Source: Chloroflexota bacterium
Lineage (GTDB): Bacteria > Chloroflexota > Anaerolineae > Promineifilales > Promineifilaceae
Assembly: GCA_024278255.1 (NCBI GenBank)
Contig: JAJRTP010000396.1
Span: 1 to 31,034, forward strand
Reading direction: 5' to 3'
DNA: 31,034 nt
The position numbers and the translations under genes are program-made. The notes beneath the pieces are model-generated. The model searched no databases. It saw nothing but the letters and a program-made list of their open reading frames with translations, and was not told the origin of the DNA. Of the stretch, positions 11,912-27,391 are shown one piece after another. The stretch's first letter is position 1. Every line of letters starts with the position of its first letter.

Positions 11912-11959
11912 AACGATTTTGTAAATCGTTCTTTGGGCGATTTGCAAAATCGCCCTACA
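11907..11959. repeat. GTAG-type REP doublet, family A, between convergent genes; possible bidirectional terminator
   Basis: TGTAG...CTACA enclosing AGAACGATTT-TGT-AAATCGTTCT and GGGCGATTT-GCA-AAATCGCCC; contains stop TAG 11909-11911. Confidence 0.85.
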
Positions 11960-14331: not shown

Positions 14332-14383
14332 TGTAGGACGATTTTGCAAATCGTCCAGGGGCGATTTACAAAATCGCCCTACA
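14332..14383. repeat. GTAG-type REP doublet, family A, copy 2
   Basis: TGTAG...CTACA enclosing GGACGATTT-TGC-AAATCGTCC and GGGCGATTT-ACA-AAATCGCCC. Confidence 0.85.
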
Positions 14384-16988: not shown

Positions 16989-17555
16989 ATGGTTACACTT
17001 TTTGCTAATACGGCCGGCCGCTTTGGAGTAAATCCCAAAGAGGCGGAACGGTTCTTCAAATTTTTGATTGTTGGCTCCATTGGGTTTGTGGTGGATTTTG
17101 GCGTTTTTAACTTGCTGTTGAATCCGCTGGATGCCTTGTTCTCTGCCGGTACCGGCGCGTATAATTTTTTCGTTGGTTTGGGGTTGAGCGAAGAGTTTGT
17201 GGAATTTGGTTTGGCGGCCGTTATCGCCGGAACTATTTCTTTTATTGCTGCCATTATCAGCAACTTTTTCTGGAATCGTTATTGGACGTATCCGGATTCG
17301 CGTTCCAAACATATTGTAGGGCAGTTTTTGCAATTTTCCCTGGTTAGCATTACCGGGATTGTTTTCCGTATTCCTATTATTGCCTTATCCCGCGTTCCTT
17401 TTACCAATTTGGTGGTGGCTACGGTAGGTTCCTGGCTTAGTCCGGAGTTGACGTCTCGTTTGGGTGAAAATTTAGCGTTGGCGCTTTCTGTGCTGATTAT
17501 TCTTTTCTGGAATTTCTTCATCAACCGCTACTGGACGTACAGCGACGTTGACTGA
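16989..17555 (+). CDS. GtrA family membrane protein (lipid-linked sugar translocase-like)
   Basis: RFFKFLIVGSIGFVVDFG, SNFFWNRYWTY, QF.LVS..G and terminal WNFFINRYWTY. Confidence 0.9.
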   Translation: MVTLFANTAGRFGVNPKEAERFFKFLIVGSIGFVVDFGVFNLLLNPLDALFSAGTGAYNFFVGLGLSEEFVEFGLAAVIAGTISFIAAIISNFFWNRYWTYPDSRSKHIVGQFLQFSLVSITGIVFRIPIIALSRVPFTNLVVATVGSWLSPELTSRLGENLALALSVLIILFWNFFINRYWTYSDVD

Positions 17556-18700
17556 TGCGGATTGGCATTGATGTGACGGCGGCCGTTACCCAGGGTGGGG
17601 GGATTGGCCGTTATACCCGCGAACTGATTCACGCGCTGGCAGAAGTGGATGCAATTAATGAATACCGGTTTTTTTCGGCAAAACGGCCGTCAACCTCCCC
17701 CGTCCCCAGCCCTCTTCCCGCCGCTCCAAATATCCAGACTTGTCCCGCGCCGCTGAATGAACGTTGGCTGTACCGCCTTTGGTACCGGCTGCATCTGCCG
17801 CTGCCGGTGCAGTGGGTGACGGGTAAACTGGATTTATTCCACTCGCCCGATTTTGTCCTGCCGCCGGTCAGCGGCCATATCCCCACGCTGCTCACCGTTC
17901 ACGACATTTCTTTTGTCCATTACCCAGACGTGTATCCGCCGAAGCTGATCAACTATTTGAAGCGGGTTGTGCCCTGGTCTATTGAACGCGCCAGCCACGT
18001 CCTGGCTGATTCCCAGGCGACGAAGCAGGATTTGGTGGATGTGTGGCAGGTTGCGCCGGAAAAAATCACCGTCTTGTACAGCGGCGTCCATGAGCGTTTT
18101 CAGCCGGTGACAGATGCAGGGAAGTTAACGGCCGTGCGCCAAAAATACCAATTAGGCAGCCAACCTTACATCCTGTCCGTGGGTACCATCCAGCCTCGCA
18201 AAAATTACCAGATGCTCATCCGCGCCTTTCAGCCGGTAGCGGCGCAATATCCGCACAACCTGATTATCAGCGGCGGCAAGGGGTGGCTGTATGAGGAAAT
18301 GATGGCGGAAGTAGAGCGGCAGGGGTTAAACGGCCGTGTCCGTTTCATCGGTTTTGTAGACGACGCTGACCTGCCGGCCCTGTACAGCGACGCCGATCTG
18401 TTCGTCTTCCCCAGCCTGTACGAAGGGTTTGGTCTGCCTGTGCTGGAAGCGATGGCTTGCGGCGCGCCGGTTATTTCGTCGGATGCGTCGTCGTTGCCGG
18501 AAGTGGCGGGGGATACGGCCGTGCTTCTCTCCCCCCAAGATCAAGCCGCCTGGACAGATGCCATGCTCGATCTGCTGGCCCATCCCGACAAAAGAACTGC
18601 GCTCGTGGCTGGCGGTTTCCGGCAAGCCCGCCAATTTACCTGGCAAACGGCCGCTCATTCCCTGCTTGAGATTTATCAAAAATTAGTCACTTCTTCATAG
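17555..18700 (+). CDS. GT4 family glycosyltransferase
   Basis: [51 protein letters not shown]; TGATG overlap with GtrA. Confidence 0.93.
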
Positions 18701-18702
18701 AT

Positions 18703-18784
18703 ACACGGATGACACGGATTGAATGGATAGACGCGGATTTCTTGTTTTATCCGTGAAAATCCTGCAAATCTGTCATATCCGTGT
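18703..18784. repeat. ACGGAT-type inverted-repeat element, copy 2
   Basis: ACACGGAT GACACGGAT...GACGCGGAT on the left; ATCCGTG...ATCTGTC...ATCCGTGT on the right; same layout as 3334-3414. Confidence 0.75.
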
Positions 18785-18836
18785 CTCCATTTTGCCCCAA
18801 AACAGTACTCATGTCCTAACAGACTAGACATAAACC

Positions 18837-18866
18837 TTTACAATTGCCTATAAGTTGGGGTATAAT
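18837..18866 (+). promoter_or_regulatory. Putative sigma70-type promoter for the STAND cassette
   Basis: TTTACA (18837-18842), 18-bp spacer, TATAAT (18861-18866) in an AT-rich intergenic region. Confidence 0.5.
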
Positions 18867-19000
18867 TTCGCGTAGTATCACATTGAACTTACATTGCAGT
18901 ACCCAAAAAATGAATAAGGGTAAAAATTCTTTAGCATCCTTACAACCATGCGGCTTTTCATCATCGGGATGTGTATCCTCATTTAGAGGAGGAGAAGGAA

Positions 19001-22000
19001 ATGTCCGCAAACGGCAATCTGTTTCGGGGCATCCTAAAGCTAAAGACATTATGTGTGGGTGGAGATTTCAGTAAAACGCCAACTGATCTGCCGTCTACAC
19101 AATTTCCCGGCAATGTCCTGAGGCATACGGACGTGTTTCAATTTTACATTGAGACCAGGTATGATGAAGCGCTAGACATCATCATTGCCAACCGGGATAT
19201 TGACCTGGTTTTTCTGGATGCTGATTATGATTCCCTGACCGAAATCACCACTTTTATGACTCAGGCCAGGGAAATACGGCCGAAATTACCCATCGTATTA
19301 TTTACCAGCGATAGTGATGATAAAATGCGCCACCTCATGCGTGAGGGGGCCACCTGGCATTTTGTCAAAAACTCTGAGGTGATTACGTCCCTCAATTCTC
19401 AAGTACACGACCACGTTTATTCCCCCATAGATTGGCCGGAAATTTTTGTCCAATATGCCAGCGATTCTCTGAAACCCCGCATCGAACCAGGCTTGAGCTA
19501 CACGGATTTGGAAGCGCTTTCCCAGAATCCGGAAGAGCGGTACATTATCAAGCGGTTGTTTGCCGACAGTGATGTGGTTCAGATTTTTCGCATGGATGAG
19601 GGGTTTAGCGGTTCGCGTATTTACACGGTTAAACCGGCGCACCAGCTTAAACGCATTCTGAAAATTGATGTAGCCGACCGGCTGGAAGCGATTCAGGAGA
19701 AACAGGAACGACTGATTCAACCGCGCCTCAACCGGCAGGTAGGGCAAATTCAGGGCAAACTGGTGCGCGGCGAACATCTGGCGGGGGCCTGTTACGCCCT
19801 GGCCGGCTCTTACCGGGACGCCATCACTCTGACCCAGTTTCTGTTGAATCAGAACCGGGTACGCAAAGAGTTGATTGACAAGATTCTGGAGCAGTTACGC
19901 ATCAGCCTGGAGCAGTTGTACGCGGGCAGCTCGGATACGGAACTACGTTATTGGGCGCCCCTCTATGCCCGCGTCCTGCCCACACATTTGACACTGGCCG
20001 ATGCCGTTCTGGTGGAGCCGGATGAGATGGCGGCTGATTTTGTGGTGTCGGCCGAATCGTTTAACACCCTGTCGGCCGTTCCCGGCAATCCGACGCTCCA
20101 GCAAATTAACCAAGCTGCTCGGCAGGGAGAGGAACCATCACTCATTTTGCATGGCTTTGAAGTGGCTGAAGTGGATTCGCGGGCCGGGACGATTTATCTG
20201 CATGACGATCTCATGGCCCGTTATCCGATTTCCTCGCTGCTCAAGGATAAAAACCACCCGATTATGCGGTTTAAGGTGCATTTGCAGGATGCGGATCAAT
20301 CCTGGCTGGCGCATCCGGCTTTCCGGCGGGGTAAGCGGGTGAGTGTGCGGGGCCGGGTGGTGGCTACCCAGGAGACGATCATTGGGGATAATATTACGGA
20401 GGTGACGGGACGGCCGTTTGACTATGACTCCGACGTGCTGGAACTGGCTTCCGGCCGGTTTATCTCCCCCATTGCCAACGTGCGCAGCCTGCTTTGGGAG
20501 GTGGGCCGGGAAGATATGATCGTGCCCATTCCCCAACTGTCGCCGGTGGTGCATGGCGATCTGAATACCAGCAATATCCTGGTGGAGATCAGCGATGAGA
20601 TGCCTCTCTGGCTCATTGACTTTTCCGATGCCCGCCCCGGCCACGTTTATTTTGATCTGGCCAAGTTGGAAGTGGAGTTTCGTACCCACGTCCTTTACCG
20701 CCTGTACAAGGAGATGGTGGACGAGGGCATCTGGGATGTGGACACGGCGACCAAATTTGCTCTGCTGGTGGAAAATGTGCTGATGCTGACGGCCGTCAAC
20801 GATTTCTCCGATTTCATTACCACTCTGCGTGATTACCAGCCGGAATGGTACGACAATTTATACACCCAGTTCCCCCTCTATTCCGAAAACCTGCTCTACT
20901 TCCTCCACTCCCTGCGCCAGATTGCCGAAACGTACAGCCCGGAACGGTTCAAATACCATTATCCGGTAGCGGTCTTTTTCCAGAGCATCTCGGCGCTCAA
21001 ATTTAAGCGGCTGGATGACGCCCCCTGGCATCCCTGGGCCAAACGGCTGGCCCTGTGCGCGGCCGTTGTGGCTGGCAAACAAGCCATCGAAGGTGTGGAT
21101 CGCCCGCCGGAACTGGACGACGTGTACAGCGGGATGCGCCAGCGCAGCGCCTTTGCCGTGATTACGGTAGGCAGCGGCGGCGACCGGAAATATCTGGTGC
21201 AGTGGAATGAAAACTGGAATATGTACAATCTGGTCGGCGGCCGTTTGAATAACGTCAAAGGGGACAAGGATTCCTTTGCCCGGGCCATCCAGCGGGAACT
21301 GCAAGAGGAGTTGGGCCTGGTCAGTCCCAAGGATTACCGTATCGTGCGGGAATATAAGCCAGTCTACGAGCGGCAGTTTTCCCGCCGGGAATTTGTCTTT
21401 AAGGATTATGAGTTCCGTGTATTCCAGATTGAGCTGCTGCCCCGCCATCCCATCACGCCGGAAGAGTATGAATGGTACGCCAACCGCTTTGACACGGAAC
21501 GAGAGAATATTCTGGTGTCGCGGGCGGAGATTGAACGGCTGCGCACGACGGATAATTTGCCCATCTCGGATACAACACGGATGATTTTGCAGGAGTTGGG
21601 GGAGATTACGGCCGTAAGTTCCGACGACATGCTGCTTTCTTTGGAATTTGAACTGGAGAGCGATGAAGTCGTGGTCAGCCGGGGGCGGGGGCAGGTGTTA
21701 GGCCGTTTGACCAATCCTCGCTATGGTGGCCTGGTGGAGAATGTGACGCTGGAAGTGCTGCCGGCCAATGGATACGAGACAGAGCAGGATTCGGCCGTTT
21801 TGCAGTTAGGCAAGCTGAACGCAGGCGACGTCTGCCCCATCTCCCTCTGGTTGCAGCCCAAAGAAAAACATGCCCGCCTGAAACTACGCTTTACCTTTTA
21901 TGATGCCCGGGGCAAAGAATACCGGCAAACGGTAGAAAAAAGCCTGGAATTCAAGACCAATACCCGCGCCCTGTTCCATATTGACAATCCTTACGTTGTC

Positions 22001-23194
22001 GGTAAACCGCTTACCCCGGCCTCTGAAGATTTGTACGTGGGCCGGGAAGATGTGTTCATGTGGATTGAGGAAAATTTGCTGGGTAAAACCCAGCCGCATA
22101 CCCTGATTCTCTACGGTCAGCGGCGTATGGGGAAAACATCTACGCTGTATCAATTAGTGGGCGGCCGGCGGGGCCAGACTATTCGTGAATATCCCGGCTA
22201 CCCCATCTTCCCGGCATACATTGATTTGCAGCGCTTGGCCGGCTGTGACACGCCGGAATTTATGGCCCGATTGAGCCAGCAAATCATCCGCAATCTGGCT
22301 AGACGCGGCATCAAAATCACACCGCGGGAGTCCTGGTCGGCCAATGGCACAATTTTTGGTCAGTTTGATGAATTTCTGGATCGGGTAGAGGAAAAGCTGC
22401 CGCAAAATGGGCTGCTGGTACTGGTGATTGATGAGTTGGAGCAGATGCAGGCGAGTATTGAAAACGGCCGTCTCAGCCCCGATATTCTGCCTTACTTGCG
22501 TTCCCTGATGCAGCATCGTACGCAGTTGACTTTTATTTTGGTGGGAACCAACCAATTAATGGAAGATTATTGGAGTACGATTTTCCATGTGGGCATCAGC
22601 CGGGAAATTGGTTCGTTGAGCCGGGAAGATACGGAACGCCTCATTCGGGAACCGGTTTCGCCCATGATCCAGTACGACGATCTGGCCGTAGACCGCATCT
22701 GGCTGGCGGCACGGGGCCACCCTTATTTCAGCCAGCTTTTGTGCCACCGGCTGATCAGCGCCGTCAATCTGGAAGGCCGCCACAGCAAGATCATCACCAT
22801 TACCGAAGTGCGCGATATGATTAACCTGGTGATTGATGAGGATGACAGCCATCTTCAGCATTTATGGAATGAAAGCAGCCGGGAAGAGCAGTTTATTCTG
22901 GCTTCCCTGGCAGGGACGCAGGAAGTGGGCGAAGAAAATGTATCCCGTTCAGAAGTGTTGTCTCGCCTGCGCGGTGCTTCCATTGAGGATGACACGGTAC
23001 GCATGGCTTTGAACCGGCTGGAAACGCGCCGCCTGGTGACGCGCACCCCGGTGGAACGCCAGATTCAACGCCGGTTATCACAGCCGGGCGGCTGGCAGCC
23101 CACGCTGGTCAGTAAGGATTATGCGTATTCGATTTCGTTTGATTTGTTGCGAAAATGGGTGGCGAAGAAACACCCGTTGGGTTCGCTTTTATAA
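19001..23194 (+). CDS. 1397-aa multidomain protein: REC - kinase/phosphotransferase (TCAD9/APH-like) - NUDIX - Ig-like - STAND/AAA ATPase - wHTH-like
   Basis: RBS GAGGAGGAG before ATG 19001; REC VFLD (19217), LFTS, FVK; GFSGS (19601), LKID, HGDLNTSNILV (20552), LIDF; RELQEELGL (21293); NPYVVGKP, GQRRMGKTS (22115), LVIDE (22421-22435), GHPYFSQLLC. Confidence 0.85.
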   Translation: MSANGNLFRGILKLKTLCVGGDFSKTPTDLPSTQFPGNVLRHTDVFQFYIETRYDEALDIIIANRDIDLVFLDADYDSLTEITTFMTQAREIRPKLPIVLFTSDSDDKMRHLMREGATWHFVKNSEVITSLNSQVHDHVYSPIDWPEIFVQYASDSLKPRIEPGLSYTDLEALSQNPEERYIIKRLFADSDVVQIFRMDEGFSGSRIYTVKPAHQLKRILKIDVADRLEAIQEKQERLIQPRLNRQVGQIQGKLVRGEHLAGACYALAGSYRDAITLTQFLLNQNRVRKELIDKILEQLRISLEQLYAGSSDTELRYWAPLYARVLPTHLTLADAVLVEPDEMAADFVVSAESFNTLSAVPGNPTLQQINQAARQGEEPSLILHGFEVAEVDSRAGTIYLHDDLMARYPISSLLKDKNHPIMRFKVHLQDADQSWLAHPAFRRGKRVSVRGRVVATQETIIGDNITEVTGRPFDYDSDVLELASGRFISPIANVRSLLWEVGREDMIVPIPQLSPVVHGDLNTSNILVEISDEMPLWLIDFSDARPGHVYFDLAKLEVEFRTHVLYRLYKEMVDEGIWDVDTATKFALLVENVLMLTAVNDFSDFITTLRDYQPEWYDNLYTQFPLYSENLLYFLHSLRQIAETYSPERFKYHYPVAVFFQSISALKFKRLDDAPWHPWAKRLALCAAVVAGKQAIEGVDRPPELDDVYSGMRQRSAFAVITVGSGGDRKYLVQWNENWNMYNLVGGRLNNVKGDKDSFARAIQRELQEELGLVSPKDYRIVREYKPVYERQFSRREFVFKDYEFRVFQIELLPRHPITPEEYEWYANRFDTERENILVSRAEIERLRTTDNLPISDTTRMILQELGEITAVSSDDMLLSLEFELESDEVVVSRGRGQVLGRLTNPRYGGLVENVTLEVLPANGYETEQDSAVLQLGKLNAGDVCPISLWLQPKEKHARLKLRFTFYDARGKEYRQTVEKSLEFKTNTRALFHIDNPYVVGKPLTPASEDLYVGREDVFMWIEENLLGKTQPHTLILYGQRRMGKTSTLYQLVGGRRGQTIREYPGYPIFPAYIDLQRLAGCDTPEFMARLSQQIIRNLARRGIKITPRESWSANGTIFGQFDEFLDRVEEKLPQNGLLVLVIDELEQMQASIENGRLSPDILPYLRSLMQHRTQLTFILVGTNQLMEDYWSTIFHVGISREIGSLSREDTERLIREPVSPMIQYDDLAVDRIWLAARGHPYFSQLLCHRLISAVNLEGRHSKIITITEVRDMINLVIDEDDSHLQHLWNESSREEQFILASLAGTQEVGEENVSRSEVLSRLRGASIEDDTVRMALNRLETRRLVTRTPVERQIQRRLSQPGGWQPTLVSKDYAYSISFDLLRKWVAKKHPLGSLL

Positions 23195-23214
23195 TTATTT
23201 GGGGATTTTGGAGT

Positions 23215-24537
23215 ATGTCATACATTGTTGGTCATCCTATAAAAAGACCTTCTGATTTTTACGGCCGTTCCTCTCAGGTCGCTCGTTTTTATGAAATTAT
23301 TGGGGGTACTCAGGCCCAGTCTGCCAGCGTTTTGGGTGTGCGCCGGGCTGGGAAAACATCTTTTTTGCAATATGTCGCCCATCGCAGCATCAAAGCCAAA
23401 TACTTGCGTGAGCCGGACAACTACACCATGATTTACATCAACATGTCCACCTGCAAAAAACCAGCCGATTTCTATTACGGCTTGCTGCGCCGCCTGCAAT
23501 ACTCGCTGGGCGTGGCCGAAACCGGCTTTTTGTGGAAAGAATCGCCCCCCAACGCCACCAGCATGTATGACGTGGAGGCATTCCTCTGCCAATTTCCGGA
23601 GCGGCGCATCATTCTTCTTCTGGATGAGTTTGACCAAATTCGGGTAGACACTTTCTCTCAGGAATTTTTGACCGAACTGCGGGCCATGACTAGCGTGCTG
23701 GACTATGATTTGGCTTTTGTCACGGCCTCTTACTGGGATTTGTACTATTTGGGTACCCAAATAGGGCTGCCGCCGACGTCACCTTTTTACAATATTTTTT
23801 ACCCGACACCCATTTACATTCCCGGATTGGAGGAGAGCGAGATTGATACGCTCATCCAAAAACCAGCGGCAGAAGAGGGTTTCCCTTTTTCCGCGGAGGA
23901 TGTGGCGCAGATTAAGCAGTTGGCAGGATCGCTGCCGTTTTTTGTGCAGGCTACGGCCGCTTATTGGCTGCGCTGCCGCAAAAGCGAATATACACCTGAC
24001 CCGGAGCAAGCCCGGCAAATTTTAGTCGGCGAATTGTCGCCTTATTTTGAACAATGGTGGCGCTCTTTTGATAACGGCTACAAAGAAGTGCTGCGCTGCA
24101 TTGCCGATAATCTTGACCTGTCTATTTTGCCTTACAGTCCGGTAGAAGTTCAGGAAGCTGTCCGTATTTTGGGTAATTATGGCATGGTGGTGCGGGAAGA
24201 CGGCCGTCTGTCCATCAACGGCGATATTTTTGTTTTATGGGTGCAGCAGTACGCCCAACTGGCCGAACAAAGACAAACACTTCACATGCCGAATAACGGG
24301 CAAAACAGGCAGAAAAATAACGTAACTGATCCGGCCAAACTGCGTCTGGTCCTGACCGATTATTTCAGTCTGGAAGATTTGCAGGCGCTTTGTTTTGATC
24401 TGGGTCTGGATATTGATGATTTTCCTGGCACCAGTAAGCAGGCCAAAGCCATCGGGCTGATCGAATATTGGCGTAACCGGCGCGAATTGGGTCGTCTTGT
24501 TCAGGCCATTCGCCAGGAACGTGGTGCTATTGTGTAG
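23215..24537 (+). CDS. STAND/AAA ATPase with C-terminal effector-associated domain (EAD7-like)
   Basis: VGHP...FYGR, Walker A GVRRAGKTS (23335), Walker B LLLDEFD, AGSLPFFVQ; C-terminal LRLVLTDYFSLEDLQALCFDLGLDIDDFPG..K..KA..LIEY...R..LGRLVQAIRQER (24328-24534). Confidence 0.8.
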   Translation: MSYIVGHPIKRPSDFYGRSSQVARFYEIIGGTQAQSASVLGVRRAGKTSFLQYVAHRSIKAKYLREPDNYTMIYINMSTCKKPADFYYGLLRRLQYSLGVAETGFLWKESPPNATSMYDVEAFLCQFPERRIILLLDEFDQIRVDTFSQEFLTELRAMTSVLDYDLAFVTASYWDLYYLGTQIGLPPTSPFYNIFYPTPIYIPGLEESEIDTLIQKPAAEEGFPFSAEDVAQIKQLAGSLPFFVQATAAYWLRCRKSEYTPDPEQARQILVGELSPYFEQWWRSFDNGYKEVLRCIADNLDLSILPYSPVEVQEAVRILGNYGMVVREDGRLSINGDIFVLWVQQYAQLAEQRQTLHMPNNGQNRQKNNVTDPAKLRLVLTDYFSLEDLQALCFDLGLDIDDFPGTSKQAKAIGLIEYWRNRRELGRLVQAIRQERGAIV

Positions 24538-24561
24538 GGCGATTTTCAAAATCGCCCTACA
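24533..24561. repeat. GTAG-type REP, family A, copy 3 (single hairpin)
   Basis: TGTAGGGCGATTTT-C-AAAATCGCCCTACA, perfect 14-bp arms; contains stop TAG 24535-24537. Confidence 0.88.
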
Positions 24562-24603
24562 GCCAACTACCAGACCTTCGCACAGCCCAACTTCGGATTC
24601 CCC

Positions 24604-24632
24604 TTGCCTCCCCAAATTGCCATCACTATAAT
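24604..24632 (+). promoter_or_regulatory. Putative sigma70-type promoter
   Basis: TTGCCT (24604-24609), 17-bp spacer, TATAAT (24627-24632), 70 bp upstream of ATG 24703. Confidence 0.55.
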
Positions 24633-24702
24633 GCTATTGAGAAGAGGATTATCTCACGGATGTTTTTATATATGCGTGAGGCATTGACAGCGAGGGGAAA
24701 CA

Positions 24703-25050
24703 ATGGTTCCGATTTATCGCAGTGATGGCGAATGGGTGGCTGTTTATGTGAATGGCAACTTGTTTAATATAGATGGAGAATGGATAGGCTATTTGGTGGG
24801 CCGGGAAGTGTATGATACCAGCGGTATGTATCTGGGCTTTTTGAGCAATGATAAGCGTTTGGTGCGAAAACGTTCTTACCATCCTCGGCCCCGGTTGGCG
24901 GTGCCGCCCCGCCCGGAACGACCGGAAATTCCGGCGTCTATGCCCTTGGCTCCTATGTTTGCCTCTTTGCCGCACCAAATTATTGATTTGTTTGAGGAAT
25001 ACCCGGAAAAGTTGATGTTTATTTCTGAAACCCGGCCGGATATGGACTGA
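24703..25050 (+). CDS. Small protein resembling the 4-fold beta-flower family
   Basis: Repeated (Y/F)xxxGxxxG units: IYRSDGEWVA, LFNIDGEWIG, VYDTSGMYLG; Pro-rich C-terminal half; RBS GAGGGG. Confidence 0.7.
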   Translation: MVPIYRSDGEWVAVYVNGNLFNIDGEWIGYLVGREVYDTSGMYLGFLSNDKRLVRKRSYHPRPRLAVPPRPERPEIPASMPLAPMFASLPHQIIDLFEEYPEKLMFISETRPDMD

Positions 25051-25064
25051 TAAACGGAAGAACT

Positions 25065-25101
25065 GCGGAGAATGCAGAGAACGCAGAGAATTGCCAGAGA
25101 A
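25065..25101. repeat. GCAGAGAA-type 9-mer tandem repeat (half element)
   Basis: GCGGAGAAT GCAGAGAAC GCAGAGAAT TGCCAGAGAA; no inverted partner seen nearby. Confidence 0.65.
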
Positions 25102-25137
25102 AATTTGGACAATTCGTGGCTGTTTTTGGAAAACTTG

Positions 25138-25614
25138 ATGATGGAACCGAAACCACCTGGTGAATCTTGTGTAACGTTGACTCAGTTGATGGGGCCGAGC
25201 CATGCCAACACGATGGGTAATGTGCATGGCGGCATCATTATGAAGTTGTGTGATGAGGCGGGCGGCATGGCGGCGGTACGTCACGCGCGGCACACGGCCG
25301 TCACCGTCACCGTAGACTCCATGACCTTCCACTCCCCGGTACACATTGGCAATTTGATGATGGTCACAGCCGAAGTGGTCTGGACGGGACGCACCTCGAT
25401 GGAAACGCGGGTGGTGGTGCGCGCCGAAGACGTGCTGACCGGGGAAATCACCCACACCAATACGGCCTATTTTGTCTACGTGGCGCTGGATGAAAACGGC
25501 CGTCCCACCCCCGTGCCCCCGCTATTGTGCGAAACTGAAGAAGAAAAACAACGCTGGGAACGGGCCGCCCAGCGCCAGGCCTATCGTTTACAGCAGCGCC
25601 AGGAAACCCTATGA
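25138..25614 (+). CDS. Acyl-CoA thioesterase, HotDog fold (YciA-like)
   Basis: ANTMGNVHGGIIMKLCDEAGG, AVTV.VD...F.SPV.IG, GRTSME, A.FVYVALDE.GRP.PVP; start 25138 or 25141. Confidence 0.92.
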   Translation: MMEPKPPGESCVTLTQLMGPSHANTMGNVHGGIIMKLCDEAGGMAAVRHARHTAVTVTVDSMTFHSPVHIGNLMMVTAEVVWTGRTSMETRVVVRAEDVLTGEITHTNTAYFVYVALDENGRPTPVPPLLCETEEEKQRWERAAQRQAYRLQQRQETL

Positions 25615-26747
25615 CCCAACCCAAATCCAAACTCCTTGACATCCTGCTGACCTCACCTGCCGGACAAGTCACATCTTTGCCTGTGCCAGACGTTGGCGTC
25701 GCCCAGATAGAGCCATTCCCCTTTTTAGCTATTGTCAACCAGTACGAGATGAAGCTGGCCCTGGTACTGTCTTTGATCAATCCTCTGGTCGGCGGCGTTT
25801 TGCTGATTGGCCCGCGGGGGACGGCCAAGACAACGGCCGTGCGCGCTTTAGCCGATCTCCTGCCCCACACCCGGCGCAGCCTGTGCGCTTATGGCTGCAC
25901 TGAGGAGATGATTGAAACCTACGGTATGGATGGCGTATGTAAAGATTGCGCCGCCAAATTTGGCTACGGCGAGCCGCTCACTGTCGAGGATAAAGTTCGC
26001 ATCTTTGAACTGCCCCTTAACGCCCGCCTGGATGACGTGGTGGGCGGCATCAATGAACGGCTGGCGCTGGAGCAAAACAAAGTGCGCCTGGAACGGGGTA
26101 TCCTCGGCCACGCAGACCGGCATATCCTTTATATTGATGAGGTCAATTTGCTGGACGACACCATCACCGACGCCATTTTGGATGCGGCGGCGCAGGGCCA
26201 TTACACCGTGCGCCGCGGCCCGCTGAAGATGACTTACCAGGCGCGGATTATGCTCATCGGCTCCATGAACCCGGAAGAAGGCAAGCTGCGGCCGCAGTTG
26301 ATGGATCGCTTTGGTTTACGGGCCATTGTGCGCGGCCTGGAGGAACCGGAACTGCGTTATCAAGCGTATGAACGAGCGTTGGCTTACAAACAGCATCCCG
26401 AACTATTTGCCGCCTCTTACGCCGCCGCCACGCTGGCCCTGGCTGATGATATTCAAGAGGCGCGGGATCGGCTGCCACAGGTCACCATCCAGCCGGAGGC
26501 GCAGGCCTTGGGTCTGGAACTGGTTGCCAGCTTGCAGATTGATTCTAATCGGGCAGAAATCACCCTGTTTGAAGCCGCCCGCGCCCACGCCGCCGCCGAT
26601 GAACGCCTGGAAGTAACCACAGCGGATGTGGAGGCGATAGCCACATTGGCCCTGCGCCTGCGCCAAAGCCCGCATTTGACTCAATTCTTTGCGGAACAGG
26701 CGGCGGAAGATGAAAAGATGCGGGCTGTTTTTGCCAAGAGAGGGTGA
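25611..26747 (+). CDS. Magnesium chelatase subunit I (BchI/ChlI)-like AAA+ ATPase
   Basis: FPFLAIVNQYEMKLAL, GGVLL.GPRGTAKTT, LPLNA..DDVVG, LYIDEVNLL, GSMNPEEG.LRPQLMDRFGL; ATGA overlap with the thioesterase. Confidence 0.88.
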   Translation: MTQPKSKLLDILLTSPAGQVTSLPVPDVGVAQIEPFPFLAIVNQYEMKLALVLSLINPLVGGVLLIGPRGTAKTTAVRALADLLPHTRRSLCAYGCTEEMIETYGMDGVCKDCAAKFGYGEPLTVEDKVRIFELPLNARLDDVVGGINERLALEQNKVRLERGILGHADRHILYIDEVNLLDDTITDAILDAAAQGHYTVRRGPLKMTYQARIMLIGSMNPEEGKLRPQLMDRFGLRAIVRGLEEPELRYQAYERALAYKQHPELFAASYAAATLALADDIQEARDRLPQVTIQPEAQALGLELVASLQIDSNRAEITLFEAARAHAAADERLEVTTADVEAIATLALRLRQSPHLTQFFAEQAAEDEKMRAVFAKRG

Positions 26748-26752
26748 GGGAT

Positions 26753-27391
26753 ATGGCAATACGCAACACGCAATACGCATCACGCATCACGCTGCTTTTG
26801 GGTTTTACGGCCGTATTCATCGGCTATCTCACTGTCTGGCTGCCAGGGCCGGCGGCCGGTTTGCAATTTCTGGGGGTGGAGTTGGGGGAGTGGACTAAGT
26901 TCCTGGGGATGAATACCCGGCGCAATCTGTTTTACCTGCCCCCTATCACCCTGAGCTTGATGCTGTTGACGTTGACTATTGTTTGGGACAGCCGGCGTTG
27001 GCAAACCTGGATTATGCGCGGGCTGGCTGTGGCTTTGGCCTTGCTGGTCTTTCCCGCTTTGGAGGATTTGCTGGGGCCGGTGCGGTCGGAATATTTGCCG
27101 CGGGTGGGCTGGATTGGCCTGACGTTGGTGTGGGCGGCTGTGGTTTCCCTGGTGAGTTGGCGTTGGCGGGAACGGCCGTGGACCACAAAGTTAATGTGGC
27201 TGCTTTTGCTGCTGCTGGGCCTGGCGGGGGCTATCATCCCCACGCAGGTTTATTTGGAGGTACGGCCGTTTGTCGCCAACTTATTGGGTATGTCGCTGGG
27301 TATTGGGCCGGGCGTCTGGCTGAATGGGGCTGGGCATTTGCTGGTGGTTGTGATTAGCGGCGTGCAGCTCTATCACGAATACAGCAGATGA
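26753..27391 (+). CDS. Hypothetical multi-pass membrane protein
   Basis: About 6 hydrophobic segments; ATG 26753 after GAGGG; no family recognised. Confidence 0.75.
   Translation: MAIRNTQYASRITLLLGFTAVFIGYLTVWLPGPAAGLQFLGVELGEWTKFLGMNTRRNLFYLPPITLSLMLLTLTIVWDSRRWQTWIMRGLAVALALLVFPALEDLLGPVRSEYLPRVGWIGLTLVWAAVVSLVSWRWRERPWTTKLMWLLLLLLGLAGAIIPTQVYLEVRPFVANLLGMSLGIGPGVWLNGAGHLLVVVISGVQLYHEYSR
26756..26790. repeat. Heptamer array, 5 units of GCA(A/T)(T/C)AC, inside the 5' end of the CDS
   Basis: GCAATAC GCAACAC GCAATAC GCATCAC GCATCAC, translated as AIRNTQYASRIT. Confidence 0.85.

Follow-up and report, generated by a model that had tools for sequence, protein, structure and literature searches.

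A two-gene STAND-type ATPase locus with an EAD7 tail in the Promineifilaceae, a candidate hetero-oligomeric signalling system

Contig JAJRTP010000396.1 of a Chloroflexota bacterium (31,034 nucleotides, analysed over its full length and here called the window) carries two adjacent genes, A and B, that each encode a STAND-type ATPase; the product of B ends in an EAD7 adaptor domain. We consider it reasonably probable that A and B together build a hetero-oligomeric signalling ATPase of the STAND type, and that the EAD7 tails of B recruit EAD7 proteins encoded elsewhere in the genome. This reading builds on the domains of the two proteins, the homology of their ATPases, their nucleotide motifs, the pairing of the genes, the EAD7 repertoire of the genome and an interface predicted in silico. 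In the metagenome-assembled genome to which it belongs (733 contigs, 4.8 Mb, 83.6% complete), the window makes up contig C316 completely, and no other contig is longer. The survey covered 121 genomes of the same family and, from other families of the class, 18 B-type loci that were fetched by their B match alone.

Two related ATPases with different appendages

19001-23194, forward strand: gene A, 1397 residues, ATG preceded by GAGGAGGAG
23215-24537, forward strand: gene B, 440 residues, ATG preceded by GGAG

The gap between the two genes is exactly 20 bp (23195-23214), and orthologues of B begin at the same MxYIVGHP. A first-pass annotation, made from the letters of the window, had described two related ATPase genes 20 bp apart with characteristic nucleotide-binding motifs. 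The sequence, BLASTP and alignments bear this out. Its "first ATPase" does hold the motifs, but the ATPase is only the C-terminal third of a 1397-residue multidomain protein.

BLASTP of residues 980-1397 of A against B gave an E value of 7e-7 (27% identity over 175 residues), and the two proteins could be aligned over the entire ATPase module when orthologues and paralogues were included. Common to both are the N-terminal strand NPY.VG.P...F/Y.GR, a Walker A motif GxRRxGK[ST], a Walker B motif hhhhDE, a conserved arginine after Walker B, a GxP-type lid motif (GHPYF in A, SLPFF in B) and a winged helix. In B the arginine is R156, which was invariant in the 53 homologues used to judge residue conservation in this protein. 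Most A-type rows have an arginine at the aligned position and two have histidine; its role as an arginine finger is putative. Both partners retain GxRRxGK[ST] and hhhhDE in the window pair and in 13 of 15 distant pairs, and Walker B was altered to DN or DD only in B copies that had lost EAD7 (L028, L027). Judged by sequence, both ATPases look active, and the A-type and B-type proteins are distinct clades rather than recent duplicates.

The ATPase encoded by gene B is of the B type (nSTAND1/2-like); it has a lid and a winged helix, and a disordered linker and EAD7 follow it. Its N-terminal strand reads YIVGHP...FYGR, and the following features were located, the two Walker motifs directly in the sequence:

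23335-23361, forward strand: Walker A motif of B, GVRRAGKTS
23608-23628, forward strand: Walker B motif of B, IILLLDE
24340-24522, forward strand: EAD7 domain, residues 376-436 of B (PF19960, E 2e-15, 56.7 bits; cut-off 32)

Residues G41, R43, R44, G46, K47, T48 and S49 of Walker A and D137 of Walker B were invariant among the homologues, and E138 was nearly so. In Pfam the ATPase of the window's B matched AAA_22 and nSTAND1 near their cut-offs, nSTAND1 scoring 24.1 bits, below the required 27.1. There are 254 homologues of ~430-440 residues with precomputed PF20702, PF20703 and PF19960 matches, and all named ones belong to Chloroflexota (Anaerolineae, Ca. Promineifilaceae, Ardenticatenaceae and Ca. 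Leptofilum). A further feature of B-type proteins is an insert of their own, LPPTSPFYNIF.

The AlphaFold model of B (confidence score pLDDT 83.4) comprises a P-loop core, a lid, a winged helix (309-356), a disordered linker (357-369) and a four-helix EAD7, with strands at 37-40, 70-76, 131-137 and 165-172 followed by helices. The model thus has the STAND architecture of P-loop core, helical lid with a GxP-type motif and winged helix. Among solved structures it comes closest to two archaeal ATPase_2 proteins, 2qen and 2fna (Foldseek E 3e-10 and 3e-9); ORC/Cdc6 follows, and after that plant NLRs and the apoptosome. The archaeal proteins PABY2304 (2qen) and SSO1545 (2fna) share the P-loop core, lid and winged helix with B, at a sequence identity of ~15%; unlike B, they are encoded by single genes and have no adaptor.

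Gene A encodes five modules: a REC-like pseudo-receiver, a TCAD9/APH-type kinase-like domain, a Nudix domain, a beta-sandwich and an A-type STAND-like ATPase with lid and winged helix. The beta-rich segment of ~130 residues (860-990) had no Pfam family match. The remaining features are:

19160-19372, forward strand: REC-like domain, residues 54-124 (Response_reg E 0.0011-0.017, below the cut-off)
19589-20695, forward strand: TCAD9 kinase-like domain, residues 197-565 (PF19974, E 9.8e-20, 71.5 bits; cut-off 40)
21137-21442, forward strand: Nudix domain, residues 713-814 (PF00293, E 1.5e-5, 25.4 bits; cut-off 21.1)
21971-23191, forward strand: A-type ATPase module, residues 991-1397 (AAA_22 34.1 bits, ATPase_2 25.2 bits)
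22115-22141, forward strand: Walker A motif of A, GQRRMGKTS, from the sequence
22415-22435, forward strand: Walker B motif of A, LVLVIDE, from the sequence

The AAA_22/ATPase_2 match to the P-loop starts at about residue 1015; the module begins with the strand NPYVVGKP...YVGR and continues through the lid motif GHPYF into the winged helix. Conservation of A was judged from an alignment of 11 orthologues. The REC-like domain retains the acceptor-position aspartate, the threonine/serine and the lysine, and is named a pseudo-receiver because the N-terminal acidic pair is missing. The kinase-like domain, which also matches APH at 28.3 bits in Pfam, keeps the catalytic loop HGDLNxxN, the metal-binding IDFSDA and the lysine of ILKI conserved, with a mean identity of ~70% across genera. 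It is apparently an active kinase of the small-molecule type (TCAD9/APH-like). The Nudix domain shows a mean identity of ~68% across genera, and its Nudix box, RELQEELG, is intact in the window's A. Since the input domains of A are so conserved, the protein may read a conserved small molecule rather than a variable protein of an invader; we infer this from the alignment.

Pairing across genomes and a predicted complex

Full-length A orthologues (52-96% identity) were found in 40 of the 121 family genomes, three split copies counted, and B orthologues at E below 1e-100 in ~45. Both were present in 33 genomes, and in all 33 they were neighbours on the same strand. The two genes thus co-occur in other genomes, a point on which the first-pass annotation had made its reading of the pair depend. 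Beyond these orthologues, 15 of the 17 paralogous B-type hits listed for the family had an A-type hit within ~5 kb, several of these pairs overlapping by 4 nt, and an A-type gene adjoined 16 of the 18 distant B-type loci. Taken together, the comparisons indicate that A/B pairing is much older than the orthologue group of the window.

The paralogous pairs differ in what is attached to the two ATPases. In L018 and L019, a B-type nSTAND2 protein with a Ser/Thr kinase precedes a 1089-residue A-type protein, and in L020 a 2411-residue A-type protein with propellers and CARDB is followed by a B-type nSTAND2 protein with EAD7 and CHAT; the genes of these pairs overlap by 4 nt. The commonest distant pair joins an A-type protein with NACHT and HEAT (~1580 residues) to an nSTAND2 protein with Trans_reg_C (~450 residues). 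Altogether, the N-terminal modules of A-type proteins are kinase/Nudix, NACHT and HEAT, propellers and CARDB, or none, and the C-terminal outputs of B-type proteins are EAD7, EAD7 and CHAT, a Ser/Thr kinase, Trans_reg_C, a weak Mrr-like nuclease match, or none. By domain content, the variable input-type domains sit on A and the variable output domains on B.

Two further observations concern individual pairs. The commonest distant pair lies at L047:2282-8391, with like loci at L045, L046, L048, L052 and L059, and its A-type chain holds two NTPase modules. Genomes G386 and G395 hold two B copies each, of which the copy adjacent to A has no EAD7 and has DN for DE in Walker B; in G386 these are L028:7038-8093 (adjacent to A) and a full B with EAD7 on another contig, L029:409-1713.

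A complex predicted for residues 900-1397 of A and 1-370 of B scored 0.64, and the best of three controls 0.00. The mark used for this score was reached by 51 of 78 solved complexes and by 2 of 108 mismatched pairs; the score cannot discriminate which family member binds, and its value for A and B may come from a generic AAA+/ORC-like stacking that the predictor picked up from solved ORC and clamp-loader rings. Three runs agreed, sharing 81-88% of their contacts. On the A side the confidently predicted interface comprises the N-terminal strand 995-1008 and the P-loop residues R1041, R1042 and T1046; on the B side it comprises 150-167, in which the invariant R156 faces the P-loop of A, and the B-specific insert at 187-198. 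In the model, this geometry fits a contact from nucleotide site to neighbour as in AAA+ rings. The prediction supports binding of A to B without showing it. The hetero-oligomerisation proposed in the first-pass annotation is thereby backed indirectly, by the predicted complex and the conserved pairing, and stays an inference.

Alternatively, A and B could be independent tandem paralogues that form separate homo-oligomers, their adjacency reflecting an old duplication and shared regulation. Seven family genomes have A without B, one genus (g203) has B without A, and the A-type ATPase paralogues of the same genome, on the short contigs C685, C28, C421, C168 and C415, have no detectable B-type neighbour there, as this alternative would predict. 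However, the two types are distinct clades with 27% identity, their adjacency is kept across deep divergence and often with 4-nt overlaps, sensor-type domains go with A and output domains with B, and the predicted hetero-complex passes its controls. We therefore regard independence of the two proteins as improbable.

The closest described system is the nSTAND2 two-gene operon (PMC8195603). There, both genes encode nSTAND2 NTPases, for which a toroidal hetero-multimer was proposed (section 15, Fig. 6C), and the partner with eroded NTP-binding motifs carries the effector, GT4 or HEPN (PMC8195603). As in that operon, two adjacent genes encode related non-classical STAND NTPases, one of which has variable outputs. 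Members of the B family carry PF20702/PF20703 (precomputed PF20702 in the B orthologues, 44-83 bits in the B paralogues), and a paralogous A-type protein (L055) matches nSTAND2 at 38.8 bits; the window's A matches AAA_22 and ATPase_2 only. In contrast to the nSTAND2 operon, both A and B have intact Walker A and B motifs with no eroded partner, and an EAD7 adaptor (in other pairs CHAT, kinase or Trans_reg_C) takes the place of GT4 or HEPN as output. Further differences are the kinase, Nudix and REC-like domains of A and a locus that is chromosomally fixed and has no mobility genes. New in comparison with that operon, as far as can be read from the genomes, would be two ATPases that both look active, an EAD7 output, a partner with kinase, Nudix and REC-like domains, and a fixed locus.

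The EAD7 domain and its genomic repertoire

The EAD7 domain lies at the C-terminus of the B ATPase, behind the disordered linker. Its match covers positions 1-61 of the 62 of the PF19960 model (60.7 bits in the genome scan), which bears out the EAD7-like helical domain seen there in the first-pass annotation, at 56.7 bits against a cut-off of 32. Likewise, no second EAD7 was found in the window: that of B is the sole one. EADs were proposed to be homotypic coupling adaptors, EAD7 being among those thought to recruit effectors (PMC7159879, section 30).

Modelled in isolation, EAD7 is a small all-alpha domain, a four-helix bundle of ~64 residues (pLDDT 88). Foldseek found nothing for it in the PDB at E <= 0.001. 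An exhaustive structural aligner ranked CARD, DD, DED and PYD chains first (~40 of the top 50), with 60-73 residues aligned at a root-mean-square deviation of 2.2-3.5 A and Z values of 5.3-7.6, which are below the safe-assignment level for helical bundles: the aligner advises caution with Z under ~13, and Z under 8 may be a common helical arrangement. The solved bacterial death-like domain 8ss1 was among the matches. EAD7 has four helices and the death-fold superfamily six. Because the Z values are below the aligner's line of caution, its death-fold likeness is a reasonable lead from the models and not a result.

A scan of the genome with PF19960 returned 19 open reading frames over the cut-off, 18 of them besides gene B, and several join EAD7 to domains of effector type:

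Contig C614: EAD7-TIR
Contig C252: EAD7-TIR-FGE-sulfatase-like
Contig C338: EAD7-FGE-sulfatase-like
Contig C416: EAD7-NACHT-membrane
Contigs C88 and C730: LRR-Roc-COR-EAD7
Contigs C472 and C180: two small P-loop-EAD7 proteins
Other hits of the scan: several EAD7 proteins with unassigned tails

A 297-residue frame at C337:5180-6070 (forward strand) combines N-terminal membrane helices with a tandem of two EAD7 domains, one over the cut-off and one at 25 bits. This repertoire is the pattern by which Kaur et al. 2020 defined EADs (PMC7159879). It also makes plausible, given 18 other EAD7 frames, the suggestion of the first-pass annotation that the EAD of B has a partner encoded elsewhere, which it might recruit. 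Like the EAD networks of NTP-dependent conflict systems (PMC7159879), the locus has one EAD copy at the terminus of a core NTPase. Unlike them, its core is a two-ATPase pair instead of a vWA-MoxR-VMAP, iSTAND or GAP1 system, and no cognate EAD7 gene is adjacent. The vWA-MoxR-VMAP ternary system is the source of the names TCAD9 and EAD7, and the ten neighbouring open reading frames that were scanned gave no match to vWA or VMAP. A MoxR-like ATPase gene downstream of the pair (25611-26747) was rejected as a marker of such a ternary system, as the flanking block that holds it also occurs in L036 and L033, which have no pair.

Across the family, genomes hold from 1 to 44 EAD7 copies; the upper figure exceeds the record of 22 given for EAD1 (PMC7159879, section 30). 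Family genomes with a B orthologue that carries EAD7 all have at least 6 EAD7 matches each. A single copy was found in many genomes without the pair and in three of the seven genomes with A only, counts that are non-independent owing to the relatedness of the genomes. Exactly one copy is present in about twenty family genomes, which suggests one conserved EAD7 protein with lineage-specific expansion. In addition, EAD7 of the B lineage ends the protein with ERG-x-I-(V/I), whereas EAD7 on other proteins runs on as ERP-x-h-x-W. The B lineage is therefore a distinct EAD7 subfamily.

The Apaf-1/NLRC4 apoptosome and inflammasome and the plant sensor/helper NLRs offer a comparison of how such a system could work, and no more than that. 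What the locus has in common with them is an ATPase of the NOD type that carries a winged helix, a small adaptor that is death-fold-like and could nucleate the recruitment of effectors, and a split of sensing and output between two subunits. Unlike in those systems, EAD7 has four helices instead of six and lies C-terminal to the ATPase, no sequence relationship is detectable, and the ATPase of B has more in common, structurally, with archaeal ATPase_2 and ORC/Cdc6 than with NACHT or NB-ARC.

A fixed chromosomal site and the role of the pair

In all orthologous loci examined, the pair directly follows the same operon of epimerase, Wzy_C, GtrA and GT4 genes, and in many relatives it precedes genes for a beta-flower protein, a 4HBT thioesterase, a MoxR-like AAA protein, a membrane protein and a large Wzy_C protein. 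The order of the block 24703-27391 (beta-flower, 4HBT, MoxR-like AAA, membrane protein) is conserved across the family. The block is also kept in genomes without the pair (L036, L033, L023, L027), and the 4HBT and membrane protein genes occur alone in L034 and L035. The site itself was found in the following states:

Full A plus B with EAD7
A plus B with a different tail: L030 (weak Mrr-like nuclease match, 19 bits, below the cut-off)
A plus tailless B with degraded Walker B, an EAD7-bearing B being elsewhere: G386
Short A (ATPase only) plus B with another tail: genus g3
A alone: G326, G345, G320 and G373
B alone, after an LVIVD-repeat gene: G398
Empty, GT4 followed by the beta-flower gene 85 bp on: G287 (L036)
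Empty, GT4 followed directly by 4HBT: G163 and G314

The repeats and promoter-like sequences around the pair in the window are:

18703-18790, no strand: imperfect inverted repeat after the GT4 gene, REP-like, arms ACACGGAT / ATCCGTGT
18837-18866, forward strand: sigma-70-like promoter match TTTACA-18-TATAAT, 11/12, the best in 17400-25700
24533-24561, no strand: perfect palindrome with 14-nt arms, GTAGGGCGATTTT / AAAATCGCCCTAC, overlapping the B stop codon
24604-24632, forward strand: promoter-like match TTGCCT-17-TATAAT, 10/12, before the beta-flower gene (24703-25050)

The first-pass annotation had taken the pair for a self-contained cassette bracketed by repeats, with its own promoter and a separate one for the next gene. 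Both repeats are where it placed them, but they are unrelated to each other and dispersed genome-wide, and so do not form the borders of a cassette: blastn of 18695-18800 against the genome gave partial copies on more than 40 contigs, and copies of the palindrome recur in the window at 11935-11959 and 14359-14383 and on other contigs, including C292, C653 and C428. Genome-wide, the palindrome occupies intergenic positions, repeatedly on C653, and resembles either a REP-like element or a transcript-end hairpin shared between loci; the copy at 24533-24561 may be such a hairpin, with no T-run after it. As for the promoters, the consensus matches exist, that at 18837-18866 lying 135 bp before the start of A. 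However, the nine promoter-like sites in the region are not above the 7.0 +/- 3.1 of shuffled sequences, and the position of the 18837-18866 site is not conserved upstream of A orthologues.

A mobile defence cassette, delimited by the repeats and inserted between the GT4 and beta-flower genes, would account for the presence and absence of the pair at its site, for the empty site of G287 (the direct junction of GT4 to the beta-flower gene that the first-pass annotation had suggested looking for) and for repeats on both sides; the nSTAND2 two-gene operon has also been called mobile (Kaur, Iyer, Burroughs, Aravind 2021; PMC8195603, section 15). Beyond the unrelated and dispersed repeats, this explanation is opposed by the lack of integrase, transposase or tRNA genes at the borders of the pair, by a GC content that resembles that of neighbouring genes, and by the use of the same site in every relative. 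Identity of A to its orthologues (52-75%) roughly tracks that of the flanking GT4 (61-72%). States in which the pair is incomplete or altered (A shortened, A or B alone, B tails swapped) share the site as well, which fits decay and remodelling in place. We regard a mobile cassette as very improbable, and the idea of a self-contained, repeat-delimited unit is abandoned. Considering that the divergence of A roughly tracks that of GT4 at a fixed site, we read the locus as old and vertically inherited in the family, with repeated, lineage-specific loss and remodelling, and the pair as a discrete unit. A GT4 tree intended to separate one gain with losses from several gains was poorly resolved, with 3 of 16 branches well supported.

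Many relatives have a small stand-alone Nudix gene between GT4 and A, 39-46% identical to the Nudix domain of A. It was located at L023:10596-11150 (reverse strand) and L028:1893-2417 (forward strand), and L014, L016 and L017 have open reading frames of 184-207 residues. The window and the Ca. Leptofilum locus do not have this gene, and tblastn found no remnant of it in the genome. The upstream GT4 was considered as a member of the system, GT4 being a usual effector in the nSTAND2 operon, and rejected. Its match to PF20706 (GT4-conflict, 53.7 bits) is partial and far below that to Glycos_transf_1 (126 bits), and the GT4 operon is intact in relatives without the pair.

The fixed site also raises the alternative that the pair is a housekeeping STAND-type regulator, for instance one that governs envelope glycan synthesis, a metabolic response or a stress response; the kinase and Nudix domains of A and the C-terminal winged helix would then do the work, with EAD7 as a mere scaffold contact. 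Its position directly after the epimerase/Wzy_C/GtrA/GT4 operon in all relatives and the strong conservation of the enzymatic domains of A are consistent with this. In the commonest paralogous pair of the class, moreover, B ends in an OmpR-type Trans_reg_C (L047), so the A/B chassis is not intrinsically immune. PADLOC found no significant defence-system match at the locus, B giving a sub-significant match to PDC-S27. Against a housekeeping role, the glycan operon and the downstream block are intact in relatives without the pair (L033-L036), and the pair is therefore dispensable for them. In addition, the EAD7 domains of the genome sit on TIR, FGE-sulfatase-like, NACHT and LRR-Roc-COR proteins, the kinds of effector and sensor known from predicted conflict systems (PMC7159879, PMC8195603), EAD7 is joined to a CHAT protease in one B paralogue (L020), and the pair is patchily present within one family. 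We consider the housekeeping explanation unlikely, although it is the alternative to which we give most weight.

The hetero-oligomeric signalling ATPase that we prefer would work as follows. A would be the input subunit, with pseudo-receiver, kinase, Nudix and beta-sandwich ahead of its ATPase, and B the output subunit, with EAD7 on a flexible linker behind ATPase and winged helix; EAD7 would be a four-helix domain resembling a truncated death fold. Nucleotide-dependent assembly of A with B would be triggered by a signal, most probably a small molecule that derives from a nucleotide and that the kinase and Nudix domains of A bind or process. Assembly would cluster the EAD7 tails, and the clustered tails could then recruit, by homotypic contacts, EAD7-TIR, EAD7-TIR-FGE-sulfatase-like, EAD7-NACHT-membrane and other proteins. 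The output may be regulated cell death or immunity in a filamentous bacterium. Binding, trigger, direction of signalling and biological output are thus the conjectural parts of this scheme.

Several points weigh against it. The EAD7 proteins nearest to that of B, on C571 (47% identity) and C10 (42%), are small and have no recognised effector domain, and therefore no specific partner of B can be named. In 5 of the 11 A orthologues the RE of the Nudix box has degenerated to RK. A high conservation of A and a fixed chromosomal site are unlike a fast-evolving immune sensor, and the genomes with only A or only B indicate that each subunit can persist alone. To these are added the cautions given above for the complex score and the structural Z values, as well as the PADLOC result. 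Searches for RNA sequencing runs containing the locus found none, and in the literature searched there was no experimental work on EAD7, nSTAND2 pairs or TCAD9. NCBIfam gave nothing useful for either protein. Metagenome matches to the locus were partial (shares 0.09-0.23) and came chiefly from sediment and hydrothermal vents, which hints at the habitat.

A broader reading, which we put forward tentatively and would sooner doubt than expect to hold, sees in the A/B pairs widespread bacterial equivalents of sensor/helper NLRs, built from two active ATPases and with a helper whose output slot can be exchanged in the course of evolution. In the pair of the window, the sensor would use its kinase and Nudix domains to detect a messenger derived from a nucleotide. 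The EAD7-TIR enzymes encoded in the same genome could be what makes this messenger. The slot would be filled by CARD-like EAD7, a CHAT protease, a protein kinase, a nuclease or a DNA-binding domain, and with EAD7 in it the pair would be the hub of a death-fold-like recruitment network that, in filamentous Chloroflexi, comprises up to 44 proteins per genome.

Because the components and the general logic were predicted earlier by computation, the proposed system would extend known themes rather than introduce a new principle. Two long-predicted ideas, EADs as homotypic adaptors and nSTAND2-type pairs as hetero-multimers, become directly testable, and the natural series at one site (full pair, short A, A only, B only, swapped tails, empty) provides ready-made comparisons. 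If A and B do form a mixed ring with a CARD-like tail, these bacteria would possess a system built on the plan of an apoptosome or of paired sensor/helper NLRs, distinguished by a defined, conserved enzymatic input module and by candidate recruits encoded in the same genome.

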